Positions 3,381 through 28,992 of a stretch of DNA of 32,000 nucleotides are shown piece after piece (the stretch's first letter is position 1; each line of letters opens with the position of its first letter). This stretch comes from Haloarcula halobia (GTDB taxonomy: Archaea > Halobacteriota > Halobacteria > Halobacteriales > Haloarculaceae), in NCBI RefSeq assembly GCF_029338255.1, contig NZ_CP119787.1:2587631-2619630 (forward strand). Direction: 5' to 3'. The position numbers were made by a program, and so were the translations under genes. Below the pieces are notes generated by a model. It had not been told where the DNA came from and made no database searches. It saw only the letters and a list, made by a program, of their open reading frames with translations.

Positions 3381-3445
3381 CAAGCCTTGATCTTTAAAAA
3401 CGATTTCTCCCCATTCTCTCTTAACCTGCGAGGTCGCCCTCTTGG

Positions 3446-3697
3446 ATGGATCACACCGATATCTCAGAGCGGGATATAGAGTTCGAGTTCTGGAACGGCC
3501 TGTACTTCCTTCTCGTAGGATTCCCGGCAGCACAATGTCGATCTACGGTTCTAACCACGGCAATTTCAGAGGCTATGGAACCGATGAGCTACATTATCGA
3601 GGCCGCGATCATCCTCAACGCACTCACCGTCATAGTCGTCGTCTGGGGGATTGGCGTGAGAGCGTACCGATACCTAGCTTTGACCCTTCATCTCTAA
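3446..3697 (+). CDS. Possible small membrane protein
   Basis: An 83-aa ORF with an acidic N-terminus and a hydrophobic C-terminal stretch (SYIIEAAIILNALTVIVVVWGIGV). The overlapping frame (3442..3756) is extremely basic (R/H-rich), which is atypical for this proteome. There is no homology evidence. Confidence 0.3.
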   Translation: MDHTDISERDIEFEFWNGLYFLLVGFPAAQCRSTVLTTAISEAMEPMSYIIEAAIILNALTVIVVVWGIGVRAYRYLALTLHL

Positions 3698-3756
3698 CCA
3701 ATTTCCGCCTTGAAGACAGCCGGCGAGAATTTTCTATCCGCAAAATTGATACTTGC

Positions 3757-6026: not shown

Positions 6027-6035
6027 TAACCAAAC

Positions 6036-13351: not shown

Positions 13352-13360
13352 AGCTGTGTT

Positions 13361-14143: not shown

Positions 14144-14147
14144 CGCT

Positions 14148-14615
14148 CTACACCGGCCCTCCAGCAGCAAGTTCACCAGTCTCCCGAACCTCGACTACGA
14201 TATCACTGACCGTGTCCGGCAACGTTTCTTTAAGCCGTCGTTCAAGAGTGATTCCCATCACTTCGGCTGTCGGTGGCTGATTGAGGACGATCAGAGCATC
14301 GCCGTCGCCACTGGCCTCAAAAGCCTCGATCAGTGGATCACCCTTCTCCACGAGAAATCGGTGATCCCACTCAGATAATACAGAAGTGATGTCTCCCTTG
14401 TCGATGACCCACCCTTCGCTGGTCAGAGTGCCAGTTATCGAGACGCTGACTTTGTAGTTATGCCCATGAGGACGGCTGCACTTGCCGTCATGGTGTAGAA
14501 TCCGGTGTCCTGTACTCAGGCGAATCGGCCGCTCACGTCCGACGTGTAAGGTTCGCTCAGTCTCGGAGAGATCCTTCGATGTGAAGAAGTACTCCTCAGA
14601 TAGGTCTTGGGCCAT
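14148..14615 (-). CDS. queD: 6-carboxy-5,6,7,8-tetrahydropterin synthase QueD
   Basis: A 155-aa ORF of PTPS/QueD-typical size. It carries the QueD/PTPS motif CSRPHGHNYKV, which holds the catalytic Cys and the Zn-binding His residues. Confidence 0.85.
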   Translation of the reverse strand: MAQDLSEEYFFTSKDLSETERTLHVGRERPIRLSTGHRILHHDGKCSRPHGHNYKVSVSITGTLTSEGWVIDKGDITSVLSEWDHRFLVEKGDPLIEAFEASGDGDALIVLNQPPTAEVMGITLERRLKETLPDTVSDIVVEVRETGELAAGGPV

Positions 14616-14758
14616 ACTGCAATATTATCTGAGGCATACTTAACTTTGAACCACTTGCCGAAAGTTATGGTAACTTCGGAAATGTGTCTGTGATGTGACG
14701 GTTTTGAGAACGAGAAGTTAATTGAGGGCAACGATAGAGTTACTACACAGGTCATTTG
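14616..14758. promoter_or_regulatory. AT-rich divergent intergenic region between queDEC and the TGT operon; presumed bidirectional promoter
   Basis: A 143-nt gap between divergently oriented start codons. It is visibly AT-richer than the flanking genes and has TATA-like stretches (cttaacttt, aagttatgg, aagttaattg). No transcription start evidence is available. Confidence 0.3.
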
Positions 14759-16660
14759 ATGTCGGCATTCAGGACTCTTGGAAAGGCTACATACGGCCGT
14801 CGAGGCGAAATAGACACGCCTGCCGGCCGTATCCAGACGCCCGAACTTCTGCCTGTGGTAAACCTAATCGGAGGAACGACAACAGAATCCGGTGGTATCT
14901 GGCGGTATACCCGTCGCCATCTCTTCGAGAGTGACAGCGTCCAGGGAATTATGTTTCAAGCGATGTCGTTTCTCGACTACAATCTCACCCCCGACAATTT
15001 GGAGGAGTGGCGTGAGAAGCCGCTCAAACAGCATTTCGAGGAGAGTGACGTTGAACCAGGGTTTGATCAACCGCTATTTATCGACTCGGGCGGATTTAAG
15101 CTGATGAACTCGACGAAGTTCGGACAGACGCCTGGCGAAGGCGGTAGTGAGAACGACTGGGATATTTACACGAATCCAGAGAGCATCTTGGACTTGCAGC
15201 TTGACTACGGCGCGGATATCATTGCCACGTTGGACTTTCCGATTCCACAGAACCTGAATAAGGAAGAAACCACTGAACGGATGGAGAAGAGTATCGATAA
15301 CGCGGTTGAGACTCTCCAGTTGCTCGACGAACGCGAACTGGAGGAGACGCCGTCGATGTATGTGGCCATACACGGCCACAACTACGAGGATGTCAACTGG
15401 TATGTCAGTCAATTTCTGGACCGCGCCGATGAACTTGATGAAGCCTTCGAGGGGTTCGCACTCGGTTCGCTCGTCCCTCTCAGTAGCTCCCCTGACACCT
15501 TGGTCGATATCGTCCAAGGGGCAAGAGACGCGATACCCGAGGACCGTTACGACGAAATCGCATTCCACGTCTTCGGCATAAGCGGAAGGCTGTGTCCTCT
15601 ACTATCTCTCCTCGGGGTAGATACGTTCGATTCGAGAAGCTATCAGTACGCAGCCCGGAACAAGAAATTCATCCACCCAGACACCTGGCAACGGATTAGC
15701 CTGGATCAGATTGATGACTGGGATGACTGGCCCTGTGACTGCCAGGCCTGTCAGAACATCCACTTAGACGATATGCGACACGCCCTGCTGGAATCCGAGG
15801 TCAGTAACAAGCCCATCGAAGGTGAACACGGGACTCATTTCAAGAGCGAATACTACGCGCAGATAGCTCATCATAACTTCGAGCTGTACAGCCGCCAGAT
15901 GCAACAAGTTCGTAACGCCATTGACGAGGGGCGTTTACTCGAACGTGTTGCCAACTTCGCTCAGGGAAAGAATATCGTAGAGAAGGGGTTGAAGCGGGCT
16001 CAACTACACAATCCTGAACTCCGTGAACAGCTTGCAGACATTGGTTATGAAGGGTTAGTTGCTGGACCGGATGACGAGACGTTCCAGACCAAGCTATCTA
16101 GCTTCCTCGAAGGGGTCGAGGACACGACACGCAAGAAACGGACCATATCGTTGAAGCACGGGCCAAATGACTTTGACATCCTCCAACGCAACGATTATCA
16201 GCCGCCGAGCGAGGCAGACGTACTGCTGATTCTACCCTGTAGCCAGGAGAAGCCGTATTCGGAATCACGGACACATCAGGCTGTCCTCTCCCGTCTTGAG
16301 GACTACCGTGAGCGATATCATAAGGTGTCCATCTCAGGGCTATACGGGCCGGTACCTGAGGACTTCGAGGAGGCCGACCCGGTGATGAGCTACGAATATG
16401 TATTGACGACTGCCGATGACGACCAAGTTGAACTTGTTGCGAACCGACTTGCTCGTTACCTGAACCGGTACGGTGAGCAATTTGACCAAATTATAGCCTA
16501 CACCACGAACAAAGCCTACCGACGTGCTATCGATACGGCATTCAACCGGTATGGCCGCGGTGAAATATACCCATCTGACCCGCGAGCTCTTCAGCTGACC
16601 GAGCATTTCCGTAATGAAAATATCGACGAGCTCGTTGGCCGATTTGCCAGTTCACAGTAA
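14759..16660 (+). CDS. TGT-family protein fused to an ArcS-type (archaeosine synthase-like) C-terminal domain; no PUA domain evident
   Basis: The N-terminal IQTPELLPVVN, FIDSGGFKL, FHVFGISGRLCPLLSLLGVDTFDS and the Zn motif CDCQAC are tRNA-guanine transglycosylase hallmarks. The C-terminal LPCSQEKPYSESRTHQ (nt 16235..16276) matches the ArcS motif PC-x3-KPY-x2-S-x2-H exactly. The protein ends about 15 aa after that domain. I place the start at ATG 14759; the track begins at TTG 14756. Confidence 0.75.
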   Translation: MSAFRTLGKATYGRRGEIDTPAGRIQTPELLPVVNLIGGTTTESGGIWRYTRRHLFESDSVQGIMFQAMSFLDYNLTPDNLEEWREKPLKQHFEESDVEPGFDQPLFIDSGGFKLMNSTKFGQTPGEGGSENDWDIYTNPESILDLQLDYGADIIATLDFPIPQNLNKEETTERMEKSIDNAVETLQLLDERELEETPSMYVAIHGHNYEDVNWYVSQFLDRADELDEAFEGFALGSLVPLSSSPDTLVDIVQGARDAIPEDRYDEIAFHVFGISGRLCPLLSLLGVDTFDSRSYQYAARNKKFIHPDTWQRISLDQIDDWDDWPCDCQACQNIHLDDMRHALLESEVSNKPIEGEHGTHFKSEYYAQIAHHNFELYSRQMQQVRNAIDEGRLLERVANFAQGKNIVEKGLKRAQLHNPELREQLADIGYEGLVAGPDDETFQTKLSSFLEGVEDTTRKKRTISLKHGPNDFDILQRNDYQPPSEADVLLILPCSQEKPYSESRTHQAVLSRLEDYRERYHKVSISGLYGPVPEDFEEADPVMSYEYVLTTADDDQVELVANRLARYLNRYGEQFDQIIAYTTNKAYRRAIDTAFNRYGRGEIYPSDPRALQLTEHFRNENIDELVGRFASSQ

Positions 16661-16719
16661 TACGTAACCAACCATCCTGCAGACGTCTAGTGGTTATCCC
16701 CAAGAACTAAGGTCTCCTC

Positions 16720-17199
16720 ATGCGATCAGCAGAGTATATGACGTCGTTATTAGTCCAATCGTGTTCTGCAACGAAGGAACAGGTGGATACACCGGTTCCT
16801 GCTCTTGATTTGTACGATGGATACTTCTTCAGGATCATAAAGAAGGCATTGCGCACGGGTCGATTTCAGTCTGGAATTGACATTATGATTATATCTGCGG
16901 AGCACGGAGTTGTAGAACCTGATCAGGAAATCGAATATTATGACCGGCGGATGGACACAGAACGTGCTGACAAACTGAATGACCAAGTCGTCAGCGCTAT
17001 TGCCAGCAAAGTCACTACTAACGGGTATGACAAGGTATGGATCAATCTTGGAAAGGACTATCTTCCCGCTATCGATGGGGTTGAATCTGCCGTTGATGTA
17101 CCCGTTGACTATATCGAAGGCACCGGTATCGGAATGAAGGGAAAGCGGCTGAAGCACCTGGTTTCCAGTGGCCGTTCTATCCCGACGCACGGTGACTGA
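16720..17199 (+). CDS. Stand-alone domain related to the ArcS-type/DUF328-like domain of the upstream ORF
   Basis: A 159-aa ORF. LLVQSCSATKE parallels LLILPCSQEKP in the upstream ORF. IMIISAEHGVVEPDQEIEYYDRRM parallels KVSISGLYGPVPEDFEEADPVMSYEYVL, and also the SGLYGVLRPLD...YRLEM block as I recall it from YaaA/DUF328 proteins. The KPY and S-x2-H parts of the ArcS motif are absent. Confidence 0.5.
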   Translation: MRSAEYMTSLLVQSCSATKEQVDTPVPALDLYDGYFFRIIKKALRTGRFQSGIDIMIISAEHGVVEPDQEIEYYDRRMDTERADKLNDQVVSAIASKVTTNGYDKVWINLGKDYLPAIDGVESAVDVPVDYIEGTGIGMKGKRLKHLVSSGRSIPTHGD

Positions 17200-17203
17200 C
17201 ACT

Positions 17204-18451
17204 ATGGTTTCGTTTGATATTGTTGCAGAGGCGGGCGAGGCAAGACGTGGACAGCTCCGAATAAATGACCGGACTTTAGAGACTCCTCACCTATTCCCCG
17301 TCATCAACTTCTACGGCGGTGGTAATGAGGGTGCTCTGTTCGGTGGCGGCGTTCACCGCACGGTCAAGGAATTCCTAACTCACGATAACGAAATCACTGG
17401 TGGTGAAGACTATAGTGACCTTTTCCGCGGTGTGATGACGTCGATCTCCTCGCTGGCCGACTATGGCATTCGAGAGAAGAAACTGGACTGGTATCTCGGC
17501 AATGAAATCCGCGAGTGGGATTGTTTCAGCGACTATAATGGGATGATCTTCGCAGACTCCGGCGGCTACAAAATCCTGAAGCAGGGCGGTCTAGAAGGTC
17601 AGGACTTTGAGAAGGACATCGACCAGGATAAGGCGCTAGATATACAGCTGGCTCTTGGACCAGACATCGTGGTCAATCTGGACCACCCGATCCATCCGGA
17701 TGACGAGTTCGAGGAGCGGATCGAAAAGATGGAGCAGACAGCTGCCAACGCTGCTCGGTTCGCAGAGCGTCGTGACGAGGTTGACGGGGCCTGCTACCTC
17801 ACGGTGCATGGCTATTATGAAGCGATGCTCGAACGATCCTTCGACCTCATCGAGGACGAACTCTCAGAACCAATCCCCGAAGCGTTCGATGGGATTGCGT
17901 TGGGTAGCCTCGTCCCGCGAAAAGACAACGTCGAGATTCTCGTCGAAGCAGTATCTGATTGTAAACGGGAGATGCAACAGCGAGGTTACGAAGACCTCCC
18001 TCTACACGTATTAGGAATCTCGGGGAACGCAATGCCGCTACTCGTTGCTGTCGGGGCCGATACCTTCGATTCTGCCTCCTACCTACACCAAGCGATCAAC
18101 GGGAAGTATTGCGTCAACCTGTTCGAGACTGTTCCGATTGATGAAGCTAACTTCGACTCCTGTGAATGCCGCGTCTGTAACGACGACTTCCACCGAGCAC
18201 GTATGCGGAACGAGATGGAGGACCTGTATCAGAAGGATATCCTCGGCTCGGTGGCAGCGCATAATCTCGCGGTTCAGCAACGGGAGCTTCGCAAGTTTCG
18301 CCAATTGATCGCTGAGGGAGACAAAGAACGGGTTGCTGAGTATTTGGAGGAGGCAGTGAAGGATCAGAAAGGCTTCCGGAAGTTCGCCTACCAGCTAATT
18401 AACGAACGAATTAACCCATACTTCGAGGAAATAGACACAACCTATGCATAA
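17204..18451 (+). CDS. Second TGT-family paralog (DpdA-like candidate DNA transglycosylase)
   Basis: Contains LETPHLFPVINFYGG, FADSGGYKIL, LHVLGISGNAMPLLVAVGADTFDSASY and the Zn motif CECRVC. It is a single TGT domain of about 415 aa with no PUA or C-terminal extension. I choose ATG 17204, 5 nt after the upstream stop; the track starts at GTG 17168. Confidence 0.75.
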   Translation: MVSFDIVAEAGEARRGQLRINDRTLETPHLFPVINFYGGGNEGALFGGGVHRTVKEFLTHDNEITGGEDYSDLFRGVMTSISSLADYGIREKKLDWYLGNEIREWDCFSDYNGMIFADSGGYKILKQGGLEGQDFEKDIDQDKALDIQLALGPDIVVNLDHPIHPDDEFEERIEKMEQTAANAARFAERRDEVDGACYLTVHGYYEAMLERSFDLIEDELSEPIPEAFDGIALGSLVPRKDNVEILVEAVSDCKREMQQRGYEDLPLHVLGISGNAMPLLVAVGADTFDSASYLHQAINGKYCVNLFETVPIDEANFDSCECRVCNDDFHRARMRNEMEDLYQKDILGSVAAHNLAVQQRELRKFRQLIAEGDKERVAEYLEEAVKDQKGFRKFAYQLINERINPYFEEIDTTYA

Positions 18452-19979
18452 GACACCACAAGTCAACGAGGTCAACGAGTTCATCGAGATAGCTAGCGAC
18501 TTTGAAGATCCGTTAGAGGTCATTAGGGAAGCTCTGTCAAATTCCTACGATGCGAACGCAACGCAGGTCGACATCAATATTGAACAAGATGACGAGGGGC
18601 GGAACACCTTGGTCATCAAGGACAACGGCCACGGGATGGACGAAGATGACCTCTCGTCGTTCTTCGACCTCGGGAACTCGAACAAAAATGACGCTATCGG
18701 GTACAAAGGCCACGGCACCAAGATCTACTACAAGAGCGATAAGGTCCGTGTCGAGACCGTCAAGGACGGGACGCGGATCGAATCGGTGATGAACCAGCCG
18801 TGGGCGAAGCTGAACAACCGCGAACTCCCCACGTACTCCATCGACACGACAGACGTCGACGAGCCATCACGTACCCGGATCGAGGTACACGGTTTCCGTG
18901 CTGGCCAGGGGTTCGACCCAAAACAGCTCACCTACAACAAGATTGAGCATTATATCAAGTGGAAAACGATCGGCGGGTCGACGGCGTGGTACTTCAACGA
19001 CGACTTCCACGAGATGGAGATCAAAGTTGAGCTTTCACCCTCGATTGACGACACGCAGGATCCGATAGAGACCGATAACCGGTTGAAATTCCCGGCTGAA
19101 AACCTGGATCCGGACGGTGAGTTCGTGGCTGAAGAGATGTGTAAGCACTACCCACCACAGGAACTGACCGTCACGCTCGATGACAGCCGTGAATTGACGG
19201 TTGAGGTCGTCGGGATGGTCGGTGGTAAGGAAGCTCGGAACAAGCTGCCGACCTATGGGAAGCATTCCGCCCAATTCGGTATCTGGCTGGCGAAGGATCA
19301 CATCAAGGTCGAACGGTACAACGATGCTATCGGTGCGGACAACGAGTTCTTCCACTTCTTCTTCATCGCTAACTGCCAGGGTCTCGAACTCTCCGCGAAT
19401 CGAGAAAAGATCCGGAACAAATCCGGCGATGTCTACCAGGCCATCACGGACGAACTCGACCGGTTTATGACCAAAGTATGCCAAGATTCCTGGTACCAGA
19501 ACTATATCGAACGCCGCAAGCTGGAGGACAAGAAACGCAGCATCCAATCGCAGGAAAGTACGCTCGAAGAACGTCTCCAGCGGACCAGGGATGAAGGTGG
19601 ACTCTCACCATCAAATCCTGCGGAGGTCATTGCCGCCCTGGAACGATACAGTGCAAATGGAGCGCCGGAGACCGTCCGGATCGCAGACTTCCAAATGGAT
19701 GATGAAGTGAACGCGATCCTTGAGACCGACAACGGTTTCGAGAACGCTGCCCTCCACGTCAAGCTGAGTGATTTCTTCGAGGAAGAAGCTGCACTGTCAC
19801 ACATCGACCGGCTCATCTGCTGGAAACTCGGTGACTTAGATGCACTCACAAAGATTGAACGCTCCTCATACCTCGGAGAACCTATCCGGTTCGACTTCCA
19901 GAGCAGGGAGGTCCATTACGGCGGGGACACGAAGCGGACGATCCCAATCTTGGAGTTAGCCGATAGCGTCTCTTCGTAG
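18444..19979 (+). CDS. GHKL (Bergerat-fold, HATPase_c/MORC-Hsp90-like) ATPase
   Basis: Has the N-box IREALSNSYDANA, the G1 box VIKDNGHGMDEDDL and the G2 box IGYKGHGTKIYY in the first 100 aa. Its start overlaps the stop of the upstream TGT gene by 8 nt (ATGCATAA). Confidence 0.75.
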   Translation: MHKTPQVNEVNEFIEIASDFEDPLEVIREALSNSYDANATQVDINIEQDDEGRNTLVIKDNGHGMDEDDLSSFFDLGNSNKNDAIGYKGHGTKIYYKSDKVRVETVKDGTRIESVMNQPWAKLNNRELPTYSIDTTDVDEPSRTRIEVHGFRAGQGFDPKQLTYNKIEHYIKWKTIGGSTAWYFNDDFHEMEIKVELSPSIDDTQDPIETDNRLKFPAENLDPDGEFVAEEMCKHYPPQELTVTLDDSRELTVEVVGMVGGKEARNKLPTYGKHSAQFGIWLAKDHIKVERYNDAIGADNEFFHFFFIANCQGLELSANREKIRNKSGDVYQAITDELDRFMTKVCQDSWYQNYIERRKLEDKKRSIQSQESTLEERLQRTRDEGGLSPSNPAEVIAALERYSANGAPETVRIADFQMDDEVNAILETDNGFENAALHVKLSDFFEEEAALSHIDRLICWKLGDLDALTKIERSSYLGEPIRFDFQSREVHYGGDTKRTIPILELADSVSS

Positions 19980-19987
19980 ATCCTTGG

Positions 19988-21220
19988 TTAGAGGAACTCC
20001 TCAAGTTTGGCGCTGTCGCCAGCATGCCAGCTTCTTCGGGGCCGGATCTTCACAGGGACCATTTCCTCGCTGCTGTCGTTCATGACGTATGCGTAGCCGG
20101 GGTCTTTCGGGATGTTCTCCATATAGTGGCCAAGGGCATTCGTGTCGTGCAGTTCAGACACTTTGTCGCCAACCGCATCGGAGTCCTGTCCGGCTGTCAG
20201 CCGATGGATCACGACCGTGTCACACTGCGATAGAATCCTGCTGTCTAATGCGCCCGGCTGCTGGGTTGCCATGACGACTGAAAGACCTGGCCGCCGTCCC
20301 TGCCGAACCCACTCTACAAGCGGCTCTGTACTTGGGACAGTCTGACCCGATGGTGCGAACAGGTGTGCCTCATCGAGGAACAGCCAGACAAGGGGGAAAT
20401 CAATCTCTGAGTCGGCACCTCGAATCCGGGCAACTTCCTCACGGCTGCGCTCGAAGCTCCGCTCATTATATGCTTTCCGAGCAAGGATCCCAGTCAACAG
20501 AGTCCGCAGGTTCCACGGTAATGCACCCGCGCCACTCAGATCGAGGACAACGAATTCGCCTCCTTTCACGATCTCGTCGATAGTGTTACCCGTGGAACTG
20601 AAGACACCCCACGAATCAGCCTTCTCCAACCGTCGGAGCAGAGCCTCCTTGATGTTGGCACTCTCCTCAGACCGTTCGACGCGTTCGATAACGTCGTGAA
20701 GGCCGTAGTACTGCCCGAATTCCTCTTCGACTTCCTCAATAACTTGAGCTAATAATCCGGCCTGCGCTTGCGTCTCATCGATATCCAGCACATAGAACCA
20801 GTCGTCCAAGGTGAGTTCCGAGGGGTAGAGCTCGAACCCCTCGTGGAAATACTCACTCACATCCTCGTAGCGTTCCTCCAGTCCCGCTGGATAATACACG
20901 GTGATAGGGTACTCTTCAGGCGTCAAATCCCAGTCGCTCAACGCATCCTTGGACTGAGTCTCAACCTGCAAACTCCAATAGATCCCCATCGCATCGACCA
21001 CTAGACCCGACAGGTTGTCCTGCACCATCCTTGGCAGCGACATCAATTCCTCCATGAATACCCCGAGTGTGTGGGACTTGCCGGAGCCCCGCTTCCCACA
21101 CACGGTTACCATATGCGGGTTATTCAGGTCAATATGGACATCCTCCCGCAACTCGCCTTGAGATGAGAACTTCCGGCCGATGTATCCGGCCAGTTGCTCG
21201 TTATCGCCACCGATGATCAT
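19988..21220 (-). CDS. HerA/FtsK-like (DUF87-type) P-loop ATPase
   Basis: Has Walker A HMVTVCGKRGSGKSHTLG, Walker B VWLFLDEAHLFAP, and RQGRRPGLSVVMATQQPGALDSRILSQCDTVVIHRL, typical of HerA/VirB4-like ATPases. Its start overlaps the upstream stop (ATGA at 21217..21220). Confidence 0.75.
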   Translation of the reverse strand: MIIGGDNEQLAGYIGRKFSSQGELREDVHIDLNNPHMVTVCGKRGSGKSHTLGVFMEELMSLPRMVQDNLSGLVVDAMGIYWSLQVETQSKDALSDWDLTPEEYPITVYYPAGLEERYEDVSEYFHEGFELYPSELTLDDWFYVLDIDETQAQAGLLAQVIEEVEEEFGQYYGLHDVIERVERSEESANIKEALLRRLEKADSWGVFSSTGNTIDEIVKGGEFVVLDLSGAGALPWNLRTLLTGILARKAYNERSFERSREEVARIRGADSEIDFPLVWLFLDEAHLFAPSGQTVPSTEPLVEWVRQGRRPGLSVVMATQQPGALDSRILSQCDTVVIHRLTAGQDSDAVGDKVSELHDTNALGHYMENIPKDPGYAYVMNDSSEEMVPVKIRPRRSWHAGDSAKLEEFL

Positions 21221-24200
21221 TCTTCTTCACCTAGTTCACTTCGGACGCGTTGCTTAATTAGGGTTCGACGAAGGGACTGGATATCATCGTCCTCCCCGTT
21301 CAGGGCGTTAATGACCTGTTCAAAGTCCGAATCCGACAGCGCCATCAAGGAATCGTCAACATCCACTTCCTCCGTCTCAAGGATCGTATCGGGTGATTCT
21401 GATGCCCCATACCTGTCGAGCACCTCCGAGATCTCGTCCTCGTCGTAAGCCTCCTCTTCGATATGCTGCTTGATCTGGTTCCTCCACCTGTCCCACGGAT
21501 TCTTAAACTGGTCGTAGTCGAAGTCAGTAGCTGATTCGTCGAGGGCGTCCTCGCAGCTATCTAGCACCCGGTCACCTTGCCCAGACCACGAACTCCCCTC
21601 AGGAAGCCGGTCCTCCTGATTCTCCAAGTACTCGCGTTCCTCCTCTACCTGTTCCTCAAGCTCTTCGATTTCGTCCCCGATCTCCCCAATGAGGAACTCC
21701 TTATCAGACTCCAGATCCGCAACGTCATCGTCCGCCTCATAGTCTTCAACGTCAGGTATGATCTGTCGTCGATGCCGTTCGAGTTCAGATACAGTCGGGT
21801 CCAGATCCCGCCCATCATCACTGAATTCGGACAGCACGTCGCCAATTGACAGATCTTCGATTAAGTCTTCGACAGTGGTTCGGTCATAGTGGTCGTTGAC
21901 CGTCGAGACAACAGAGACATCGATATCATCGAGGTTCAGATCAGGATCGGTGCCCTTCAGTGAGGTGTAAGTCGATTCTAATTCCTCGACATCGTTCATC
22001 AACTCGTATACATCCTCAGCCGCTTCCAACTGCTCGACCAACTGCTCGACAGCCGGTGTAATCAGGAACAATACCTCGGTTTCCAGTTGTCCAAGGGGAC
22101 GCAACTCCGCGATATAGTTGGGAACTTTGGTGCCGCTGAAAGCAGGACTGCTTCCCAGAGTCCTGAGCCGCTGGTCGAGATTGCCATGTTCTACGGAGAG
22201 GTCCGTATCGCAGCGTTCTTCTAAGTCATCAAGCCGGCCAGCTGCTGGGATATCATCGACGTCTGTGTAGGCCTCGCGGAGTGATGCAAGCTCGTCAGTA
22301 TCAATGTCCTCTCCGCGGGCGCTCTTCAGCACCTGCTTCTCAACCGTTTTGCGGAGATTATCCTGGATCGTTTCCCATCTTGCTTCTTGATCGCTTTCAA
22401 CGCCGATGATCGTCTCGGTATCGTCGAGAATCCACTCCTCGGTGTAGTCCCCAATGACGAACAGGAGGAATATGAGTGCCCGAGTAACGCTGTCGATCTC
22501 CGTCGTCCCGAAAATGAGGTCATACACCTCGTCTTCGGTGACCTCATCATCCTCCAGCATTTCTTTCAAGTCGTCTATATTACTCTGGAAGTTGGCTGTA
22601 TAGTTATCAGTGATATCGCCATCATTCACGAAGGACTCGTTCTCCTCAAAGTCCTCAAGAGTATCACGGAGGTCATCACCAAACATCGGATCAAAGCTCA
22701 AATACGGATAATTAGGCATTATGGCCTCAGGGATGTCTGGGTCAGTGAATTCGAGCGAGTCCTCGTACTTCAGATGCTGCACAGCATAGGCGAGATTCAT
22801 TGCTTCCTTCCCGTTGTAGGTGCCGTCGTACCCCAACCGGTTGAGAACATAATCAGATCTGTATATCCCGGATAGACCGTCATTCAGGTTTACCGGCGAG
22901 AAGAGGTAGTTGGTTTGGGTAAGCATCCGGAGCTGGCCGTCAGGGAGCCGTTCCTCGCCTGGATTTTCTTCCTCAAGACCTCGGATCAGACAGAGTTTCG
23001 TCCAGAGCAGGTACCGGTCGAATTCAGACGAACTGGGGTACTCCGAACGAAGCGTTGAGAGTACCTCTTCGGTTTGATCCCGTTCCGTCTGATCATGCCG
23101 AATATCCGGGTTCAGGTCATTTTCTAGGTCCTCAGCAAGGTCTTCAGCTCGTTCATAGCGTTCAGATACCTCATACAGTGCAGCGACATCGTCGTCCTCG
23201 TCGGCCTCTGTGAGGCAGACGATGAACTCAAGGGCAGTTGGCGGGTCATCCGATGAATCGATCTGCAGTTCCTCCGGTGTCTCCTTGAAGCACAAATAGA
23301 CCTTGTCCGTGTAGCTCAGCTGGCCATCGACATCGAATTCGATGTAGCTTGAGCTATCCGCATCAAACGGGATGTCGAAGACTGTTCGGGCGTCATACCA
23401 TTCCCGATAGAGCTGAATCGGGCTGGTACTTCGCAAATCTTCATCAGTGATGACGTCGTTGATTTCTTCGGAGAGATTGACCTCGGAGTCTGGAGCAGCT
23501 TCTGCCGTTAGTTCACCTGAGTCAAATATCAGGCTACCGTCATCATCAATATCGAAGTAATCGGTTCTCGTGCTTGCGGTGTCGATCAGGTGAGTTAATT
23601 CCTCGTCACTGATGTCTATCGTATACTGGTCTGCGAGGTTTCCCAGCTGTTCGGAACTGTAGAGAGCGGGATTTTGACTCCGGTACAGAATTCCGTCTTC
23701 AGCTACCGCAAAAAGTAGCCGTTGTTGCGTGTATGTACAGTCATCAAAGTCTCCCTCAATACGCTCCTCAATGCTATCTCGTCCCGGGAGGTCATCGAGG
23801 TTCCCGCGATCCAACTCTCCCAGTTCATCACGCACCTCGTCGCCATACCGATACAGCATGTCGAGGTCGATAATACCGTCCTGATCCCATCGCTTGAAAT
23901 ACTCGTTCGCAATCAGTTTGAAGTCCCGGAATCCCCGAACAACGCGGTCTCCGCCTTCCTCCCTGTACCCCTCTGTGATCGATAAAGCGAAATTCAGGAA
24001 ATCCTCAGTGAAGGGATACACATAGGTCTCGTCATCGTCTGCATTCAGACGGGTTTCCCAGTCGTCCTTATCATAGTCTTGGAGCAGTGGAAGGGCGTAG
24101 CGGCGATATAGGTCGGCAAAGAGTTCCTTGCTCTCCTCCCGAGACAGGTCAATATTATACGCAATACTCTCTCTAACTCGATCGGTCAGGTCACTTCTTG

Positions 24201-25059
24201 CGTTCAGGATTTCCGGCCAGTCTTGGAGTGGGAGCGTATTTGCAATGAGAAGATATGGTGGATCCTCAACGTCTTCGAACCCCACCACGGACTTCCGAAT
24301 CATTTTGCGCACAATCGCCCGGAGTTTCAGTTCTTCATCAGTCACCGGCCCGATATCGAATGCCTGCTCAAACTCATCCAGGCAGATAACCGGATATCGG
24401 CCTGTCTCCTCTTTATAAAGCCGAGTGAACCACGTAAGTGTCTCGTGGATATCTCCTGTAGTCAGCTCCTTCACAATCATTGCGACATCAGCAACCGTTG
24501 AAGGATCGTCAAACACCTCCTCCAGGCGATCCTGCTGTGAGGACGGCAACGCCTGAAGATCGCTCACCGTGAGATTCGCCTTCTTCTGTTGGAACTCATC
24601 AACTAGGTCACCTTCGGACAGCCCATCAGCAGGGGACACCAGTCCCTCAAAAACCCGTCCGAGCATCCGATTCGGGCTGTCACAGTCCTCAAGGCTAACC
24701 TCAACTGGATCAATAGGAGTCTCTCCATAGGTGAATTGATCATATTCCACCTGTTCACCATCCTTCGTAAATTCCTTCGATTGGCTGCACAGGTCAACCA
24801 GATTGTTCATCAGCACCGTCTTGCCGGAACCGTATGCTCCGTGCAGGACAACCCCCGGACTCTGTTTATCGGAAAGGCCAGAGTGGATCCCCCGGATGAT
24901 AGCATCCCGCTTGTCGGTGAGGATAAAACCAGAGTCTGACTCGATAAAGTCCCGGAAATTAGGATGTTCGTCCGTAGCAAGGGTTTCGCAATCTCGCTCG
25001 AATCCCTTGATGGTCTGTGCCTCAAGGAGCGTGACGATGTGCGTTTGTGCTTGATCCAT
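21217..25059 (-). CDS. Large P-loop NTPase, BrxC/PglY-like (DUF499-like) candidate
   Basis: A 1280-aa ORF with an N-terminal Walker A VVLHGAYGSGKTVLMNNL (about nt 24818..24846) and Walker B PVICLDEFEQ. A very long acidic C-terminal region has no other motifs. The size, N-terminal P-loop and linkage to a PglZ gene resemble BrxC/PglY. This is not verified by a profile search. Confidence 0.5.
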   Translation of the reverse strand: MDQAQTHIVTLLEAQTIKGFERDCETLATDEHPNFRDFIESDSGFILTDKRDAIIRGIHSGLSDKQSPGVVLHGAYGSGKTVLMNNLVDLCSQSKEFTKDGEQVEYDQFTYGETPIDPVEVSLEDCDSPNRMLGRVFEGLVSPADGLSEGDLVDEFQQKKANLTVSDLQALPSSQQDRLEEVFDDPSTVADVAMIVKELTTGDIHETLTWFTRLYKEETGRYPVICLDEFEQAFDIGPVTDEELKLRAIVRKMIRKSVVGFEDVEDPPYLLIANTLPLQDWPEILNARSDLTDRVRESIAYNIDLSREESKELFADLYRRYALPLLQDYDKDDWETRLNADDDETYVYPFTEDFLNFALSITEGYREEGGDRVVRGFRDFKLIANEYFKRWDQDGIIDLDMLYRYGDEVRDELGELDRGNLDDLPGRDSIEERIEGDFDDCTYTQQRLLFAVAEDGILYRSQNPALYSSEQLGNLADQYTIDISDEELTHLIDTASTRTDYFDIDDDGSLIFDSGELTAEAAPDSEVNLSEEINDVITDEDLRSTSPIQLYREWYDARTVFDIPFDADSSSYIEFDVDGQLSYTDKVYLCFKETPEELQIDSSDDPPTALEFIVCLTEADEDDDVAALYEVSERYERAEDLAEDLENDLNPDIRHDQTERDQTEEVLSTLRSEYPSSSEFDRYLLWTKLCLIRGLEEENPGEERLPDGQLRMLTQTNYLFSPVNLNDGLSGIYRSDYVLNRLGYDGTYNGKEAMNLAYAVQHLKYEDSLEFTDPDIPEAIMPNYPYLSFDPMFGDDLRDTLEDFEENESFVNDGDITDNYTANFQSNIDDLKEMLEDDEVTEDEVYDLIFGTTEIDSVTRALIFLLFVIGDYTEEWILDDTETIIGVESDQEARWETIQDNLRKTVEKQVLKSARGEDIDTDELASLREAYTDVDDIPAAGRLDDLEERCDTDLSVEHGNLDQRLRTLGSSPAFSGTKVPNYIAELRPLGQLETEVLFLITPAVEQLVEQLEAAEDVYELMNDVEELESTYTSLKGTDPDLNLDDIDVSVVSTVNDHYDRTTVEDLIEDLSIGDVLSEFSDDGRDLDPTVSELERHRRQIIPDVEDYEADDDVADLESDKEFLIGEIGDEIEELEEQVEEEREYLENQEDRLPEGSSWSGQGDRVLDSCEDALDESATDFDYDQFKNPWDRWRNQIKQHIEEEAYDEDEISEVLDRYGASESPDTILETEEVDVDDSLMALSDSDFEQVINALNGEDDDIQSLRRTLIKQRVRSELGEEE

Positions 25060-25066
25060 AGTATCT

Positions 25067-25381
25067 TTATGTAGAAGGGCGGACTCGGAAGCGCATTAGT
25101 CCGGATTTGATGTATGATTCCTCGGGGACAACATAAACACGGCGACCAGCGACGTGCTCTTTAAGTGGACGTGTCATCAGGACGATTTTATCTCCCTCCC
25201 CATCATCTTCATCATCTGGACCGACGAACGCGATATCGAAGTCGCCGGAGAGACGGAACTGGAGCTCGTAGACGAATTCGAATACAGATCCCTGGGCAGC
25301 TTTGGCGTCCCCTGCTGTTACGATAACGAGTCTATTCCAGGGTTTGTTCAACTCGTCCATTACGGGTGCTACAAGCGCCAT
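25067..25381 (-). CDS. Hypothetical small protein (104 aa)
   Basis: The ORF sits 7 nt upstream of the BrxC-like start and 6 nt downstream of the preceding stop. It has acidic composition and no recognisable motif. Confidence 0.5.
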   Translation of the reverse strand: MALVAPVMDELNKPWNRLVIVTAGDAKAAQGSVFEFVYELQFRLSGDFDIAFVGPDDEDDGEGDKIVLMTRPLKEHVAGRRVYVVPEESYIKSGLMRFRVRPST

Positions 25382-25387
25382 GAGAGG

Positions 25388-26197
25388 TCAGTCGACTACC
25401 TCCATAATTTTCCTGCCGTGGTACCTACGGGTTGAAATATGTCCACCGTCCTCTAATTCACCTAACACTTCATCGATGCGTGATGAATCCCAGTCAAAAT
25501 CCATTTTCAGGATATGTTCAAGATCCGAATACGGCATATGGCGGTCATTCTCTTCGAGAATCTGTAACACGATCTCTTCGTCATTCTGTCGGAAGTAGAG
25601 GTACTGCGTGGGGTCGATTTTCCATCGCCGGCCCTCCTTTTTCAGTATTCCCAGGTCATTGAGAATGCCGCCGATCGTCCCTGCGGTGTTCGAATTCCCC
25701 TTTGCATCGAATTTCATCATGTCATTGATCGCATTTCCTCGGTTGGTGCCGAGATCGTAATTCCGCTCTGCAATTCGTTTGTCGACACCTTTGATGGCTC
25801 TCCAGAAATATACGAAGTTGTCCCGGGATTTCTCGACTAGGAGTCGGAAGGCAGCGACATCCTGAGGTGAGGCCTCAACGAGGTCACGCCCTTCCTCGGT
25901 GAGATAGATCCCGTCCTCACGTTGTTCGATGACTTCTACGGAGCCGGCGTATCCGGGCAGCGTGAAGGTGAACCACTCGTCCAGCGGATGACTGAATAGA
26001 TTGTTGTCGCGTTCTTCGTTGATGGTCTCCATCTGTTCACGGAGCTCTTCTTCAGTGATACCGGGATTTCTGGAGACTAAGCGGACAAACCGCTGTAGAC
26101 CTTCGATAACCCGTTGGTTCCCTAACTGGGGGAGAGCGAGATCCAGGTCCTCTTTCTTTGCCGCTGCTCCGACAGCCTCGTCAGTACTGTCACTCAT
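25388..26197 (-). CDS. Hypothetical protein (269 aa), possible winged-helix regions
   Basis: Its start overlaps the PglZ stop (ATGA at 26194..26197). The C-terminal MPYSDLEHILKMDFDWDSSRIDEVLGELEDGGHISTRRYHGRKI looks wHTH-like. There is no family assignment. Confidence 0.5.
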   Translation of the reverse strand: MSDSTDEAVGAAAKKEDLDLALPQLGNQRVIEGLQRFVRLVSRNPGITEEELREQMETINEERDNNLFSHPLDEWFTFTLPGYAGSVEVIEQREDGIYLTEEGRDLVEASPQDVAAFRLLVEKSRDNFVYFWRAIKGVDKRIAERNYDLGTNRGNAINDMMKFDAKGNSNTAGTIGGILNDLGILKKEGRRWKIDPTQYLYFRQNDEEIVLQILEENDRHMPYSDLEHILKMDFDWDSSRIDEVLGELEDGGHISTRRYHGRKIMEVVD

Positions 26198-28992
26198 GAT
26201 TGTAGTTCAAATTCTAAGCGGACACCACATAATTCTCCAAGTGACGTCCCGCCGTGGTGGCCGTGGTCGGTTGCCCGTGGTCCCTTAACCGCATACCGTG
26301 ACAGCGTCCCGATCGTTGGCGAATCAAATATTGCCTCGCCCGAAGGTAGATCAACGTCAATACCGGGCTGCTGTTCCAGTCGTGTCATCGTGTCGTTTTC
26401 GACACTACTCGTCCATCCGTACATGTACTTTGACCCAGAGTTTAGATAGGGCTTAACCCGGACTGCCTCCGCGATTGTCTCATCTGAGAGTGTTTCGTCA
26501 TCCGAGATATAGCGACGTGCCTCATCAAATGGAATTGATCGGCCCGAGCCTGCGAGGCCAAGGGGGACACGGGTCGTATTGGATCTGGTTTTCCCCTCTA
26601 ACCGTTCGCAATTCAACTCGAATACCTCGTCCACATCCAAGGCTTCCGTCAGCATGGACGTATTGAACCGGTAGTCGGATCGGACAGAATCGATGATTTG
26701 CTCCCGCTCATACGTGGTGATTTTCCCGTGGTCCGATGCAACAACGAGAGATATGGATTCAGACTCAAATTCAGGTTCTGCATCTTCGTACGCATTCTCG
26801 ATAGCTGATTCAATATCTTCGTAGATCTGATCAATAAATCCCCCCAGCGCCTGGTAGTAGTTAGAGAACTCAGAGAAATCGAGCGCCGTGTGCAGGAAGG
26901 AATCGAAATCGCTGACGTATAATACGAAATCCGACTTCATCGCCTCTCGGGCTTCTGGCGGCCGGGACGGATCAGTGTACACCTCAATGCGTTGCCGAAG
27001 CGCGTTCTCTAGTTCACCAGTCAACTCTTCTCTCACATCACGGAGAGATGCCTGCGACCCGGTCAGATCTCGTGCCGTTGTCTGGCGAATATCCGCTATC
27101 TGCTCGGCAACTCGTGTAATGCCCCGTTCGGAAAGATGGGTGGACTGGATGAGCTCGAAACTGTGGGGGGTTGTCCGGTCGATGAAATCGAATGCATCGG
27201 AGCCATAGTCCTGATGGAGGTCATAGACATTGTCGCCCCGACGCGGCGCCCATCCATAGATTCCCGTCTCGGAGGCAGGAAGTCCAGAGAGAAGTGTTGC
27301 CATCGCAGAGGGTGTATACGAGGGAAGATTCGAATAGAGCACATCGACATCCGCAGGGTCTCTCCCCAAGGCATCCAACTGCTGAATCACCTCGAAGTCT
27401 ATCAGGCCGAAGCTATCAATAACCAGGAAGATGCGGACGTCGCTCTCCGACCCCGGTTCTAACAGATCTGCGATGTGGGGATGCTCGTTCGAGCTGACAA
27501 TTTCTGGATAGGATGAGACAACAAGGTCGGTAAACGCATCGTATTTCCGCACCAGCGTTGTCAGCAAATCCGACTCAGACGGAGCAGTCGGTGTCGATTC
27601 CAAGACGAACTCAGACCACCGACGAAGGAACTCAGGAAGATTCTCCAACGAGACTTCCATCGCCTGGATCTCTGCCGCTTCTTCCTCCAACTCAAGGTGA
27701 TCGAGCAGCCGGCCCCTCGCCTCATTCATCACGGTCAAGTGAGGATAGGCAACGACCTCCTCCGCTTCTAATTCCATTGCCGCCCGCCAATACGGTACAG
27801 CAATATCTATCCACTCCTCACCAGAGAGTTCCTGGTTAACGGCTTCCCCACCAGAGATCATAACAAGCTCTGTAACGTGCTGGAGGAAACGCCCAAATCG
27901 ATCAAGGGCGTCCCGGGTCGGTCGCTCCCCCAGTTCGCCGCTCGCAAGTTGCTCGGCCTCGTCACCAAAGGTATCCTGAGCTGCGGCGAAACGCCGTGAT
28001 ATCTCGTCGTCGTCAGCCCCAGCAAACACGAGCCCAAAGTGGGACGCTAAAAGCTCTCCTGCATCAGAGGGATCAGCGTACCGTAACTCGATGTCATCGC
28101 CGCCGATCTCGTTGACCGCTGCCTGCAGCGTATCGATAAAGTCCCGGTCAACTGTTGTCGGGGCAAGATCCTCGATATTCCGTGAGGATTCCCGAGAAAT
28201 CACGGTTTCCAAAGCTAACCGCCGAAACGTCACAATCACCTCCTCCCCCAGCTGCCGAAGATGCAGTAAGACATCGCGCTTCCCCGTGCCTGTCGGGATA
28301 TCTTCGCCATAATGATCGACACACTGCACGGTGAAGACGTTCCGCTGCTGATTATCTTCCAGCCGATCAAACACCGTCTTCTCCTGGAGGTTCAGAACAC
28401 GCAGAAAGAACTCGGCTAATGGTTCAGGAGCGTCCGAGAGTTCATCGTACTGGATGTAAACATCCTCATAAACGTCTTCCTGCGTTCGCTGCAGTGCTCC
28501 AGTGTCGACCGTTTTCCCGACAGCACCGGCTACCACAAGCCGGGTCAGATACTCAGCCAACGACAAATCGTGTCTATCAAGCGAGGCATCGACTGTAGCC
28601 CCGTAGGCCTCTCGCTGAGCAACGTTCGAATCCTCAATCCCCAACCGCGCGAACTCCAAAAACGATGAGCCGACGACATCGTCTCGTCGATCGATGAAGG
28701 CGGGCGGACAAATAACAACTGCAGAGTTAGCGCCCGGCTCGCGGGCTATGAAATCGATCGCACTGTGTACTGTTTCTTCGAATTCTTGGAAGGTACGGGG
28801 ATAATGAAGACATCGCACGGAATCATCCGCGAGTTCTGTTAAAAACGTCCGGCCCAGCGGAACGGGGTGTGTAGATGGAACGTAGTACAGGATTCCGACC
28901 GTTTCAGTGATCTTTGAGCTGGTTTCGGTGAGGTTGGTAATACCGTCGAATTGGAGAGAGGGTTCAGCAGAATCCTCTAAATCCGTGATCAT
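26194..28992 (-). CDS. pglZ: PglZ-domain (alkaline-phosphatase superfamily) protein
   Basis: A 932-aa ORF. The C-terminal 400 aa (about nt 26230..27440) carry VRIFLVIDSFGLID (metal-binding Asp), LPSYTPSAMATLLSGLPASETGIYGW (nucleophile Thr/Ser region), LVVASDHGK and ATDHGHHGGTSLGE. This is the order expected for PglZ/alkaline-phosphatase-fold proteins. Confidence 0.65.
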   Translation of the reverse strand: MITDLEDSAEPSLQFDGITNLTETSSKITETVGILYYVPSTHPVPLGRTFLTELADDSVRCLHYPRTFQEFEETVHSAIDFIAREPGANSAVVICPPAFIDRRDDVVGSSFLEFARLGIEDSNVAQREAYGATVDASLDRHDLSLAEYLTRLVVAGAVGKTVDTGALQRTQEDVYEDVYIQYDELSDAPEPLAEFFLRVLNLQEKTVFDRLEDNQQRNVFTVQCVDHYGEDIPTGTGKRDVLLHLRQLGEEVIVTFRRLALETVISRESSRNIEDLAPTTVDRDFIDTLQAAVNEIGGDDIELRYADPSDAGELLASHFGLVFAGADDDEISRRFAAAQDTFGDEAEQLASGELGERPTRDALDRFGRFLQHVTELVMISGGEAVNQELSGEEWIDIAVPYWRAAMELEAEEVVAYPHLTVMNEARGRLLDHLELEEEAAEIQAMEVSLENLPEFLRRWSEFVLESTPTAPSESDLLTTLVRKYDAFTDLVVSSYPEIVSSNEHPHIADLLEPGSESDVRIFLVIDSFGLIDFEVIQQLDALGRDPADVDVLYSNLPSYTPSAMATLLSGLPASETGIYGWAPRRGDNVYDLHQDYGSDAFDFIDRTTPHSFELIQSTHLSERGITRVAEQIADIRQTTARDLTGSQASLRDVREELTGELENALRQRIEVYTDPSRPPEAREAMKSDFVLYVSDFDSFLHTALDFSEFSNYYQALGGFIDQIYEDIESAIENAYEDAEPEFESESISLVVASDHGKITTYEREQIIDSVRSDYRFNTSMLTEALDVDEVFELNCERLEGKTRSNTTRVPLGLAGSGRSIPFDEARRYISDDETLSDETIAEAVRVKPYLNSGSKYMYGWTSSVENDTMTRLEQQPGIDVDLPSGEAIFDSPTIGTLSRYAVKGPRATDHGHHGGTSLGELCGVRLEFELQS

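Follow-up and report, generated by a model that had tools for sequence, protein, structure and literature searches.

What could distinguish self from foreign DNA in a PglZ-type operon that encodes no PglX? The question is raised by a 32,000-nucleotide stretch of the Haloarcula halobia genome (assembly GCF_029338255.1, contig NZ_CP119787.1, positions 2,587,631 to 2,619,630; hereafter the window, to whose first letter all coordinates refer), in which five genes at 19988-28992 had been described as an operon for PglZ, two small proteins, a BrxC-like protein and a HerA-like ATPase. Bacteriophage exclusion (BREX) systems are widespread, and how foreign DNA is recognised and stopped is still unclear. 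The analysis presented here suggests that the operon is probably part of a two-module, modification-dependent defence system of about 12 genes (12638-28992), in which a 7-deazaguanine serves as self-mark instead of a methyl group. A 7-deazaguanine cassette beside the operon, overlooked in the original prediction, probably supplies the function of the "missing PglX".

The five genes, here named P1 to P5 in the order of transcription, all lie on the minus strand and start with ATG. They encode a divergent PglZ-like phosphodiesterase and presumed effector (P1, 26194-28992, 932 amino acids [aa]), a mostly helical protein with a winged-helix-like C-terminus (P2, 25388-26197, 269 aa), a small, probably alpha/beta protein (P3, 25067-25381, 104 aa), a predicted ORC/Cdc6-STAND-type AAA+ ATPase and presumed sensor or scaffold (P4, 21217-25059, 1280 aa), and a predicted HerA/FtsK-type P-loop ATPase (P5, 19988-21220, 410 aa). 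The junctions originally given as -4, +6, +7 and -4 nt were all confirmed by direct reading of the sequence: P1 and P2 overlap by 4 nt in an ATGA (caaTCATGAgtg), gaps of 6 nt and 7 nt separate P2 from P3 (TGAcctctcATG) and P3 from P4 (TAAagatactATG), and P4 and P5 again share a 4-nt ATGA overlap (gaagaATGAtc). The NCBI product names are "alkaline phosphatase family protein" for P1, "ATP-binding protein" for P5 and "hypothetical" for P2-P4, and the NCBI version of P3 has 97 aa, from a downstream start. The 104-aa start, which gives the 6-nt gap, is favoured because the N-terminal M-x-L/I-V segment is conserved in an alignment of 11 homologues.

Whether the arrangement recurs had been left to a comparison of PglZ neighbourhoods. 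It was found, with order and strand unchanged, in more than 20 independent contigs or genomes, mostly at just 29-40% identity of P1-P4, and is therefore not due to chance. P4 has 19 full-length relatives (31-97% identity), and on all of their contigs the five genes recur in unchanged order. The module is nevertheless rare in species genomes: it is present in 3 of 185,579, namely Halorubrum glutamatedens, Halorussus halobius and Halorubrum xinjiangense (on plasmid p1). Scans of viral contigs yielded nothing related to either P4 or the cassette's GHKL ATPase. In what follows, L-numbers (L002, L004 and so on) are labels of the related loci compared with the window.

Domain scans across the window bear out the reported lack of PglX, BrxL/Lon and BrxA/BrxB: among open reading frames of at least 100 aa that are not antisense to a longer gene, none matched methyltransferase, Lon/BrxL, DUF1819 or DUF1788 models. 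The PADLOC BREX models likewise gave no match on P1-P5.

The name PglZ for the 932-aa P1 is supported indirectly, not by a direct profile match. P1 scored 13.1 bits against Pfam PglZ (PF08665), below the cut-off of 25, and matched Pfam Phosphodiest at 4.8e-8 (33 bits); PADLOC, including its PglZ models, and NCBIfam gave no match, hhalign comparison of the P1 family profile with E. coli HS PglZ gave a probability of 2.8%, and a PDB-sequence profile search with the family returned nothing meaningful. However, an AlphaFold2 (AF2) model built from an alignment of 13 family sequences (predicted local distance difference test, pLDDT, 82.4) divides into an alpha/beta domain at the N-terminus, a central helical region and, at residues ~515-932, a C-terminal domain with the metal site, and its top Foldseek match in the PDB is the Acinetobacter BREX PglZ 9zn5_B (E 1.8e-10, 1025 aligned columns, full length), followed by PorX (~1e-6) and then by nucleotide pyrophosphatases (NPPs; ~1e-5). 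Relatives of P1 numbered 22 in an exhaustive hidden Markov model (HMM) search of 1.84 billion representative proteins, and a word-index homologue search retrieved 5 close ones. The weak relatives straddle Phosphodiest and PglZ, and four exceed the Pfam PglZ cut-off. For instance, P0045 reaches 34.7 bits against PF08665 and matches the P1-family HMM at 1.7e-24, and its gene sits between a DUF6884 gene, a family also present in the cassette, and a P2-like gene. Because the top fold match is a BREX PglZ and intermediate sequences in a like gene context pass the PglZ cut-off, P1 is best described as a predicted divergent branch of the PglZ family. The residues D526, S554-N-x-P-S-Y-T560-P-S-A, D697/H701, D754-H755-G and H910/H913-G-G are invariant in the family, and the alkaline-phosphatase-type metal site thus looks intact and the enzyme active.

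The description of the 1280-aa P4 as BrxC-like stands less firmly. It has no sequence signature behind it: DUF6079, DUF499 and BrxC_BrxD were matched by none of the 18 P4 family members in Pfam, hhalign comparison of the P4 profile with E. coli HS BrxC gave a probability of 13% that was confined to the P-loop region, and a PDB-sequence profile search with the family found nothing meaningful. All 18 members matched AAA_16, AAA_22 and NACHT, and the matches of P4 in PADLOC and NCBIfam amounted to P-loop noise. The Walker A (HGAYGSGKT, 73-81) and Walker B (DEFE, 228-231) motifs are invariant in the family. On the other hand, the AF2 model, which covers residues 1-1200 of 1280 (pLDDT 77; predicted TM-score, pTM, 0.40), combines an AAA+ core with segments of helical and winged-helix type, a beta unit of four strands and a long tail of helices, and its sole PDB match at E<=1e-3 is a modest one to the N-terminal half of BrxC 9zll_B (7.5e-4 over ~550 columns); ORC1/Cdc6 come next among the fold matches. 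A BrxC-like architecture of P4 is therefore plausible, though not firmly established.

The HerA/FtsK-like ATPase proposed for the 3' end of the operon was borne out. P5 matches Pfam DUF87 (2.9e-12) and HerA_C, and PADLOC mad8 over its full length (3.3e-24), and it carries the conserved motifs GKRGSGKS (Walker A), VWLFLDEAH (Walker B) and ATQQP. It is thus predicted to be a HerA/FtsK-type ATPase, presumably a hexameric double-stranded DNA translocase. A metagenome scan with the P5 profile returned 369 relatives, and the 80 of these that were retained fall into three tiers. Those at 67-94% identity are of the haloarchaeal type and have the full module wherever the contig is long enough (P5 identity among haloarchaeal-type loci is 66-94%), and those at 50-55% belong to divergent versions of the module. 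The third tier (33-37%; L057-L102, metagenome contigs) was rejected as a source of further variants, none of the module genes being nearby; it is a large family of ~440-aa HerA-like ATPases with conserved multi-gene synteny, without a large ATPase or PglZ-like gene, and looks like a lineage-specific housekeeping paralogue rather than a defence gene. Plasmid matches to P5 at 24-29% identity were also discarded, as canonical HerA-NurA-Mre11-Rad50 operons.

The two small proteins had been called unassignable, and by sequence they remain so. P2 has no match in PADLOC or NCBIfam, and its family alignment contains no Walker A motif and no P-loop; its Pfam matches are weak, C-terminal and of winged-helix type (DUF7343 at 0.0025), and none of 13 family members matched DUF4007, DUF1819 or DUF1788 at E<=10. 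A word-index search with the family alignment retrieved 4 relatives. P3 has no family match in Pfam, PADLOC or NCBIfam and no Walker A motif. In hhalign comparisons, the P2 and P3 profiles gave probabilities of at most 3% against E. coli HS BrxA and BrxB, and of 0.1% and 2.8%, respectively, against an alignment of published sequences (taken from optical character recognition text) of the STAND NTPase of BREX-Related Capture (BRC), a system compared with the window below. Both proteins are nonetheless retained: P2 is conserved in every related locus, P3 in all haloarchaeal-type loci, and a 114-118-aa gene fills the slot of P3 in the divergent ones. P2 may be a DNA-binding subunit, and its helical make-up and weak winged-helix matches suggest that it could be an analogue of the DUF4007 protein of BRC. 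With profile searches, PADLOC and hhalign against E. coli HS BrxA, BrxB, BrxC and PglZ (at most 13%) all negative, no profile assigns the operon to a defined BREX type, in line with the original proposal.

The genes that lie beyond the 3' end of the operon offer a candidate for the mark. Four plus-strand genes are convergent with it. The nearest encodes a GHKL-type ATPase (18444-19979, 511 aa; Pfam HATPase_c_3 9.3e-16, with an N-terminus that is MutL/BbrUII/MzaB-like in NCBIfam), whose stop codon faces that of the HerA-like gene at a distance of 8 nt (19979-19988), and there is therefore no space for separate terminators. It is preceded by a TGT paralogue resembling DpdA and archaeal TgtA (17168-18451, 427 aa; Pfam TGT 1e-30, NCBIfam TgtA 3.6e-36), which matches DpdA itself at 26.8 bits in NCBIfam (cut-off 200) and at 3.5e-6 in PADLOC; by a DUF6884 protein with a predicted YaaA/DpdC-like fold (16720-17199, 159 aa; Pfam DUF6884 1.6e-14); and by an ArcS-like TGT-DUF5591 fusion (14756-16660, 634 aa; Pfam TGT 7.5e-31 and DUF5591 1.6e-19), whose match to NCBIfam ArcS (8.4e-37) is under the cut-off of that model. 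In PADLOC, the DUF6884 protein matches PDC-M57A (4.3e-11) and, weakly, DpdC (1.3e-4), and its orthologues in L004 and L006 also match PF03883, the DpdC/YaaA family. The authors of Pfam describe DUF6884 as YaaA (PF03883)-related, DNA-binding and base-flipping (PMC11701544).

Three minus-strand genes complete the cassette. They encode a QueD-like 6-carboxytetrahydropterin synthase (14148-14615, 155 aa; Pfam PTPS 1.5e-18, NCBIfam QueD 1.8e-19), a QueE-like radical-SAM 7-carboxy-7-deazaguanine synthase (13361-14176, 271 aa; Radical_SAM 5.9e-16, NCBIfam QueE 2e-27) and QueC, the synthase of 7-cyano-7-deazaguanine (preQ0) (12638-13351, 237 aa; Pfam 5.4e-73, TIGR00364 183.6 bits with a cut-off of 150.3). 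As judged from these family matches, the cassette would be a complete kit for preQ0 synthesis and 7-deazaguanine insertion into nucleic acid. The 427-aa TGT is presumed to be a DNA guanine transglycosylase, and the TGT-DUF5591 fusion would be either a second transglycosylase or an enzyme that converts preQ0 in DNA. The DUF6884 protein is presumably an enzyme that flips bases in DNA and works on the deazaguanine after its insertion, and the GHKL ATPase is, by analogy with DpdB of bacterial Dpd systems, the presumed ATPase of the modification step. No alternative self-marking enzyme was detected: neither methyltransferase nor 3'-phosphoadenosine-5'-phosphosulfate (PAPS) reductase domains were found on the substantive open reading frames of the 32-kb window or in the called genes of related loci.

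The module is accompanied by one or more genes of the cassette (GHKL ATPase, TGT, DUF6884 or QueCDE), within the flanks covered, in about 25 distinct loci, L017 being counted by a very divergent GHKL gene only. The GHKL ATPase is the most constant operon partner and lies beside the module in L004, L006-L013, L024, L029, L037 and L053. Orthologues of the 427-aa TGT do so in L004, L006, L007, L008, L018/19, L024, L028 and L029; QueD, QueE and QueC are co-located with it in L002, L007, L018/19, L031-34, L047 and L050, and in L016, L047 and L050 the PglZ-like gene has a DUF6884 gene immediately upstream. In L009, L013 and L037, the TGT-DUF5591 fusion is the sole TGT by the module and is paired with the GHKL ATPase, and these two proteins may thus be the minimal writer. 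The arrangement of the cassette is variable. The window, L006-L009 and L029 have it downstream and convergent, L004 and L024 have it upstream and divergent, and L002, L018 and L032-34 have QueDEC upstream of the module and in the same direction. Therefore, selection on proximity, not inherited synteny, appears to keep the genes together. The strongest evidence for one functional unit comes from two metagenomic contigs, L047 and L050 (GC 45%; P5 51-53% identical), because module and cassette form a single array in both. All of their genes are co-directional, with tight or overlapping junctions, in the order TGT, DUF6884, P1-like (910 aa), P2-like (254 aa), a 115-aa gene, P4-like (1287 aa), P5 (427 aa), QueD, QueC and QueE.

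Within this linkage, the parts have diverged unequally. P1-P4 co-vary in discrete clades that are 30-40% identical to each other, whereas P5 is 66-78% identical across the same clades, and the speed at which the clades of P1-P4 have moved apart is suggestive of an arms race. Moreover, the identities of the two modules are incongruent. Relative to the window, L006 is 80% identical in P1-P4 but 47-54% in the writer genes of the cassette, while L007, L018 and L019 are about 35% identical in P1-P4 but 68-96% in the writer genes, and all four pairings of the two main reader clades with the two main writer clades occur. Therefore, reader and writer modules reassort, which suggests either that recognition by the reader is of the modified base as such or that the coupling of the modules is looser than in classical restriction-modification.

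The setting of the window fits that of a mobile defence island. Its GC content is low (47-59%, below that of Haloarcula chromosomes), no tRNA gene or integrase was seen in it, and it would fit an internal part of a large island gained by horizontal transfer; a mobile setting is suggested by the low GC, a nuclease-helicase neighbour, the plasmid copy and the sparse distribution of the module. The neighbour (7886-12475, minus strand), a protein of 1529 aa, has a PD-(D/E)XK nuclease at its N-terminus and a superfamily 1 (Upf1-like) helicase at its C-terminus, and matches PADLOC MkoA (2.7e-31), NCBIfam PLuB_AAA (5e-23) and, weakly, DpdJ (3.1e-12). L017 has a 43%-identical homologue (22707-23831) at a distance of 8 kb from its module, whereas the other loci yielded none. 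In the window, a 374-aa protein without a family match (6740-7864, minus strand) has 48%-identical homologues that adjoin the module in L008 (9779-10912) and L053 (767-2107). Both were rejected as parts of the system, since they recur in just 2-3 loci; the nuclease-helicase is probably a separate defence gene of the same island, and the 374-aa gene may be an occasional accessory gene. Farther away, six co-directional plus-strand genes (278-6521) encode a PDDEXK_4 nuclease-like protein (426 aa) followed by proteins of 155, 405, 213/149, 572 and 161 aa, two proteins of the set having weak coiled-coil-type matches, and may form another defence operon. In L002, a gene at 17430-18281, downstream of the module, encodes a weak homologue of the 426-aa protein (24% identity). 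Schlafen/AlbA_2-domain genes (389-453 aa) are beside the module in L002 (4047-5216), L003 (3462-4805) and L017 (17254-18615), and none is present in the window.

A mechanism for the proposed deazaguanine-marked system can be outlined as follows. QueD, in the first step, and then QueE and QueC would produce preQ0, and the DpdA/TgtA-like TGT, the ArcS-like TGT-DUF5591 protein or both would swap genomic guanine for it, with the GHKL ATPase powering base exchange as DpdB does in Dpd. The DUF6884 protein, the ArcS-like domain or both could then turn the resulting deoxynucleoside (dPreQ0) into a derivative, such as dADG (2'-deoxy-7-amido-7-deazaguanosine) or dG+ (2'-deoxyarchaeosine). On the side of the reader and effector, P4 would assemble with P2, P3 and P1 into a BREX-like, DNA-interrogating complex, by analogy with BREX, BRC and DndFGH, and a ring of P5 would pump DNA through or towards it. 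Unmarked DNA would be either stopped or, through the intact metal site of P1, cleaved, and the P1-P4 complex may also serve the marking step, as in type 1 BREX.

Several points weigh against this interpretation. From gene structure, domain and fold assignments, intact catalytic motifs, conservation and genomic linkage, all of which are directly observed, we infer both the defence function and the DNA modification, as well as what the mark is, which protein reads it and that P1 acts as a nuclease. The activity of the two TGT paralogues on DNA, as opposed to tRNA, is a prediction from sequence, P2 and P3 lack an assignment by Pfam and hhalign, and the BrxC-like label of P4 depends on a modest Foldseek E value (7.5e-4) and a model with a pTM of 0.40. 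L017 (Halorubrum glutamatedens) has the full module and 6-9 kb of flank on each side, but no TGT, DUF6884 or Que gene, and the divergent loci L043 and L046 are without writer genes in the flanks covered. Lastly, reassortment is hard to square with a sequence specificity shared by the two modules, unless the reader senses the modified base.

One alternative dispenses with a self-mark. In that case, the sensor ATPase, pump and PglZ-like nuclease would form a self-sufficient HerA/FtsK "capture" module, and the cassette would be an independent island neighbour that, for instance, shields host DNA from other restriction systems. Modules that reassort freely, and L017 with its module but no TGT or Que genes within 6-9 kb, agree with it, and so does the published capture model, which needs no modification and in which TGT and GNAT are present in a subset of BRC loci (PMC12839542). 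However, the pairing is kept in about 25 loci over P5 identities of 51-94%, in varied orders and in two single arrays, and chance neighbours are less consistently kept: the 1529-aa nuclease-helicase, the Schlafen/AlbA_2 genes and the 374-aa gene come and go. A self-sufficient capture module is therefore regarded as unlikely.

In type 1 BREX, methylation in vivo needs BrxB, BrxC and PglZ. Hence, the five proteins might instead be accessory writing machinery, a pump and loader for the transglycosylase, any restriction being the task of other genes, for instance that for the PD-(D/E)XK-helicase (7886-12475). The far higher conservation of P5 than of P1-P4 is as expected of a DNA-contacting part that works with a conserved enzyme, and base insertion by Dpd systems also requires an ATPase, DpdB (PMC12839542). 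Yet the cassette already has an ATPase of its own in the GHKL protein, phage DpdA systems modify DNA without such a module (PMC6884629), and the PD-(D/E)XK-helicase is found in 2 loci only. In addition, the divergence of P1-P4 (30-40%, vs 66-78% for P5) resembles that of an arms race and not that of a housekeeping loader, which makes a purely accessory role quite improbable.

It is more doubtful still that P1-P5 are a type IV-like module that attacks viral DNA containing 7-deazaguanine, with a cassette that makes another derivative or serves tRNA. The Haloarcula virus HVTV-1 does carry a 7-deazaguanine, 2'-deoxy-7-aminomethyl-7-deazaguanosine (dPreQ1; PMC6884629), and DUF6884/YaaA-type proteins bind and flip damaged or odd bases (PMC11701544), but preQ0 synthesis and two extra TGT paralogues alongside such a module would risk self-targeting, and P1-P5 show no GmrSD, McrBC, SRA or similar signature. 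Finally, an ordinary defined BREX type, such as the haloarchaeal type 5 with a pglX nearby, would account for the PglZ-like and BrxC-like folds and the BREX-like protein sizes, but is extremely improbable given that methyltransferase, BrxA, BrxB, BrxH and BrxL were not found in the 32 kb or in related loci, that the PADLOC BREX models were negative and that hhalign against the E. coli HS proteins gave at most 13%.

The reading of the window as a two-module system with a 7-deazaguanine self-mark is thus retained as probable, and it has several implications. The general concept of PglZ, HerA and TGT combined was already published in 2026 as BRC, and the family described here is rare. Nevertheless, it amounts to a natural "swap experiment", in which a PglZ- and BrxC-like core is kept, the methyltransferase is swapped for a putative deazaguanine writer and a HerA-type pump is added, and in which one can ask what parts read the mark and what parts act on DNA. 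If the interpretation is correct, genomic 7-deazaguanine, so far characterised in bacteria and viruses, would extend to archaeal chromosomes, and the GHKL ATPase, the ArcS-like enzyme and the DUF6884 protein would constitute a new writer set, with relevance to deazaguanine-carrying haloviruses such as HVTV-1. The unequal divergence of P1-P4 and P5 and the reassortment of modules are clues to where the arms race acts, and the whole system is compact, at about 16 kb. A bolder proposal, which we advance tentatively and hold to be somewhat less than probable, is that the system is a third independent lineage of deazaguanine immunity, beside bacterial Dpd and BRC, that combines a BREX-like exclusion machine, a GHKL/ArcS-like writer with or without the DpdA-like TGT and the DUF6884 protein, and a reader that senses the base itself. 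Such a base-sensing reader, if real, would follow a logic unlike that of classical restriction-modification and BREX.

How, then, does the system relate to those already known? BREX types 1-6 are reportedly those of Goldfarb and colleagues (2015). The window shares with them the predicted PglZ-like and BrxC-like folds encoded in one operon and, presumably, a discrimination between self and foreign DNA that is based on modification. Unlike them, it has no PglX, BrxP, BrxA/BrxB signature, BrxL or BrxH, and has a HerA-type ATPase instead.

Of the two options left by the original prediction, a new BREX subtype or a distinct PglZ-based system, the second is nearer the mark, although a precedent exists in BRC (PMC12839542). 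BRC was defined computationally (Nucleic Acids Research, January 2026) in 45 taxa, including several haloarchaea, and consists of PglZ, a DUF6079 BrxC-like protein, an active STAND NTPase, a DUF4007 protein, HerA/FtsK, GNAT and TGT, the HerA/FtsK translocase being found in every locus and GNAT and TGT in a subset (PMC12839542). Its STAND NTPase (~175 aa, motif NLxGxxGxGKTF) and its DUF4007 protein are the counterparts of BrxB and BrxA, respectively, and a DpdC-family gene is reported by its authors to be absent (PMC12839542). In the literature searched, PglZ, HerA and a transglycosylase occurred together only in that paper. A BRC-like reference locus, L020 (Haloplanus sp. HW8-1 plasmid NZ_CP098519.1, 103351-124451), contains QueCDE, a TGT (326 aa), a small AAA protein, a 1363-aa large ATPase that matches BrxC_BrxD (2.3e-6), a HerA-like protein (389 aa), GNAT and a QueF-like gene. 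It has no annotated PglZ, the QueF-like gene (132 aa) follows GNAT, and an AddAB-like nuclease-helicase pair lies downstream; the published seven-component layout of BRC is therefore itself variable.

The window and BRC have an overall plan in common, with a predicted PglZ-type phosphodiesterase, a large ORC/Cdc6 AAA+ ATPase of plausibly BrxC-like architecture, HerA/FtsK and a TGT module that has QueCDE close by. Among the proteins of L020, the HerA-like one (35% identity to P5, E 1e-67) and QueCDE (61-72% identity) are the only ones that match proteins of the window. In contrast, the P1, P2 and P4 profiles match nothing in L020 (P4 HMM at E<10; L020 without annotated PglZ), and hhalign of P4 against the large ATPase of L020 gave a probability of 11%. 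The window lacks a DUF6079/BrxC_BrxD signature, the ~175-aa STAND NTPase, a DUF4007 match and GNAT; the operon has no other small P-loop gene that could be the STAND NTPase, and the GNAT of L020 had no BLAST match in any related locus. Conversely, the window has a DUF6884 (DpdC-family) gene, a GHKL ATPase and an ArcS-like TGT-DUF5591 fusion, and its gene order is different. Haloarcula, Halomicroarcula and two P1 accessions were not found in those parts of the supplements of PMC12839542 that were consulted, and tblastn of a published BRC PglZ N-terminus against plasmids gave no match. Because STAND NTPase, GNAT, DUF6079 and DUF4007 are missing and a DpdC-family protein, GHKL ATPase and ArcS-like fusion are present, the system is classified as a sister variant of BRC, not as a demonstrated member.

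Two further systems tie a DNA-pump ATPase to a DNA-modification mark. P5 is a full-length match to mad8 of the methylation-associated defence system (MADS), whose HerA-like Mad8 is essential for defence and coupled to DNA modification, and whose mandatory set is the Mad6 kinase, Mad7 (DptG-like) and Mad8 (MADS preprint). DndH/DptH of the DndFGH/DptFGH systems has a HerA-like C-terminal domain. Unlike MADS, the window yielded no match for a Mad6 kinase, for Mad7/DptG, for a methyltransferase or for a specificity subunit, the counterpart of Mad8 standing alone, and in contrast to both MADS and DndFGH/DptFGH, the predicted mark is a deazaguanine and not methylation or phosphorothioate.

A parallel to the writer is the Dpd system (dpdA-K), which is said to have been described by Thiaville (2016) and Gedara (2023). 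Dpd systems use 7-deazaguanine as a restriction-modification mark and require the ATPase DpdB for base insertion (PMC12839542). As in Dpd, the window has QueCDE for preQ0, a TGT-family enzyme that is predicted to place it in DNA and a protein of the DpdC/YaaA family, and the modification genes adjoin a presumed restriction module. Unlike Dpd, it has a GHKL ATPase instead of a ParB-like DpdB, its DpdC-like protein is half-length (159 aa), and PADLOC detected no DpdB or DpdD-K, apart from the weak DpdJ-like match on the non-conserved 1529-aa helicase. Deazaguanine is already part of the conflict between haloarchaea and their viruses, because, as noted by Hutinet et al., Haloarcula vallismortis has a genomic DpdA homologue and its virus HVTV-1 replaces ~30% of its G by dPreQ1 (PMC6884629).

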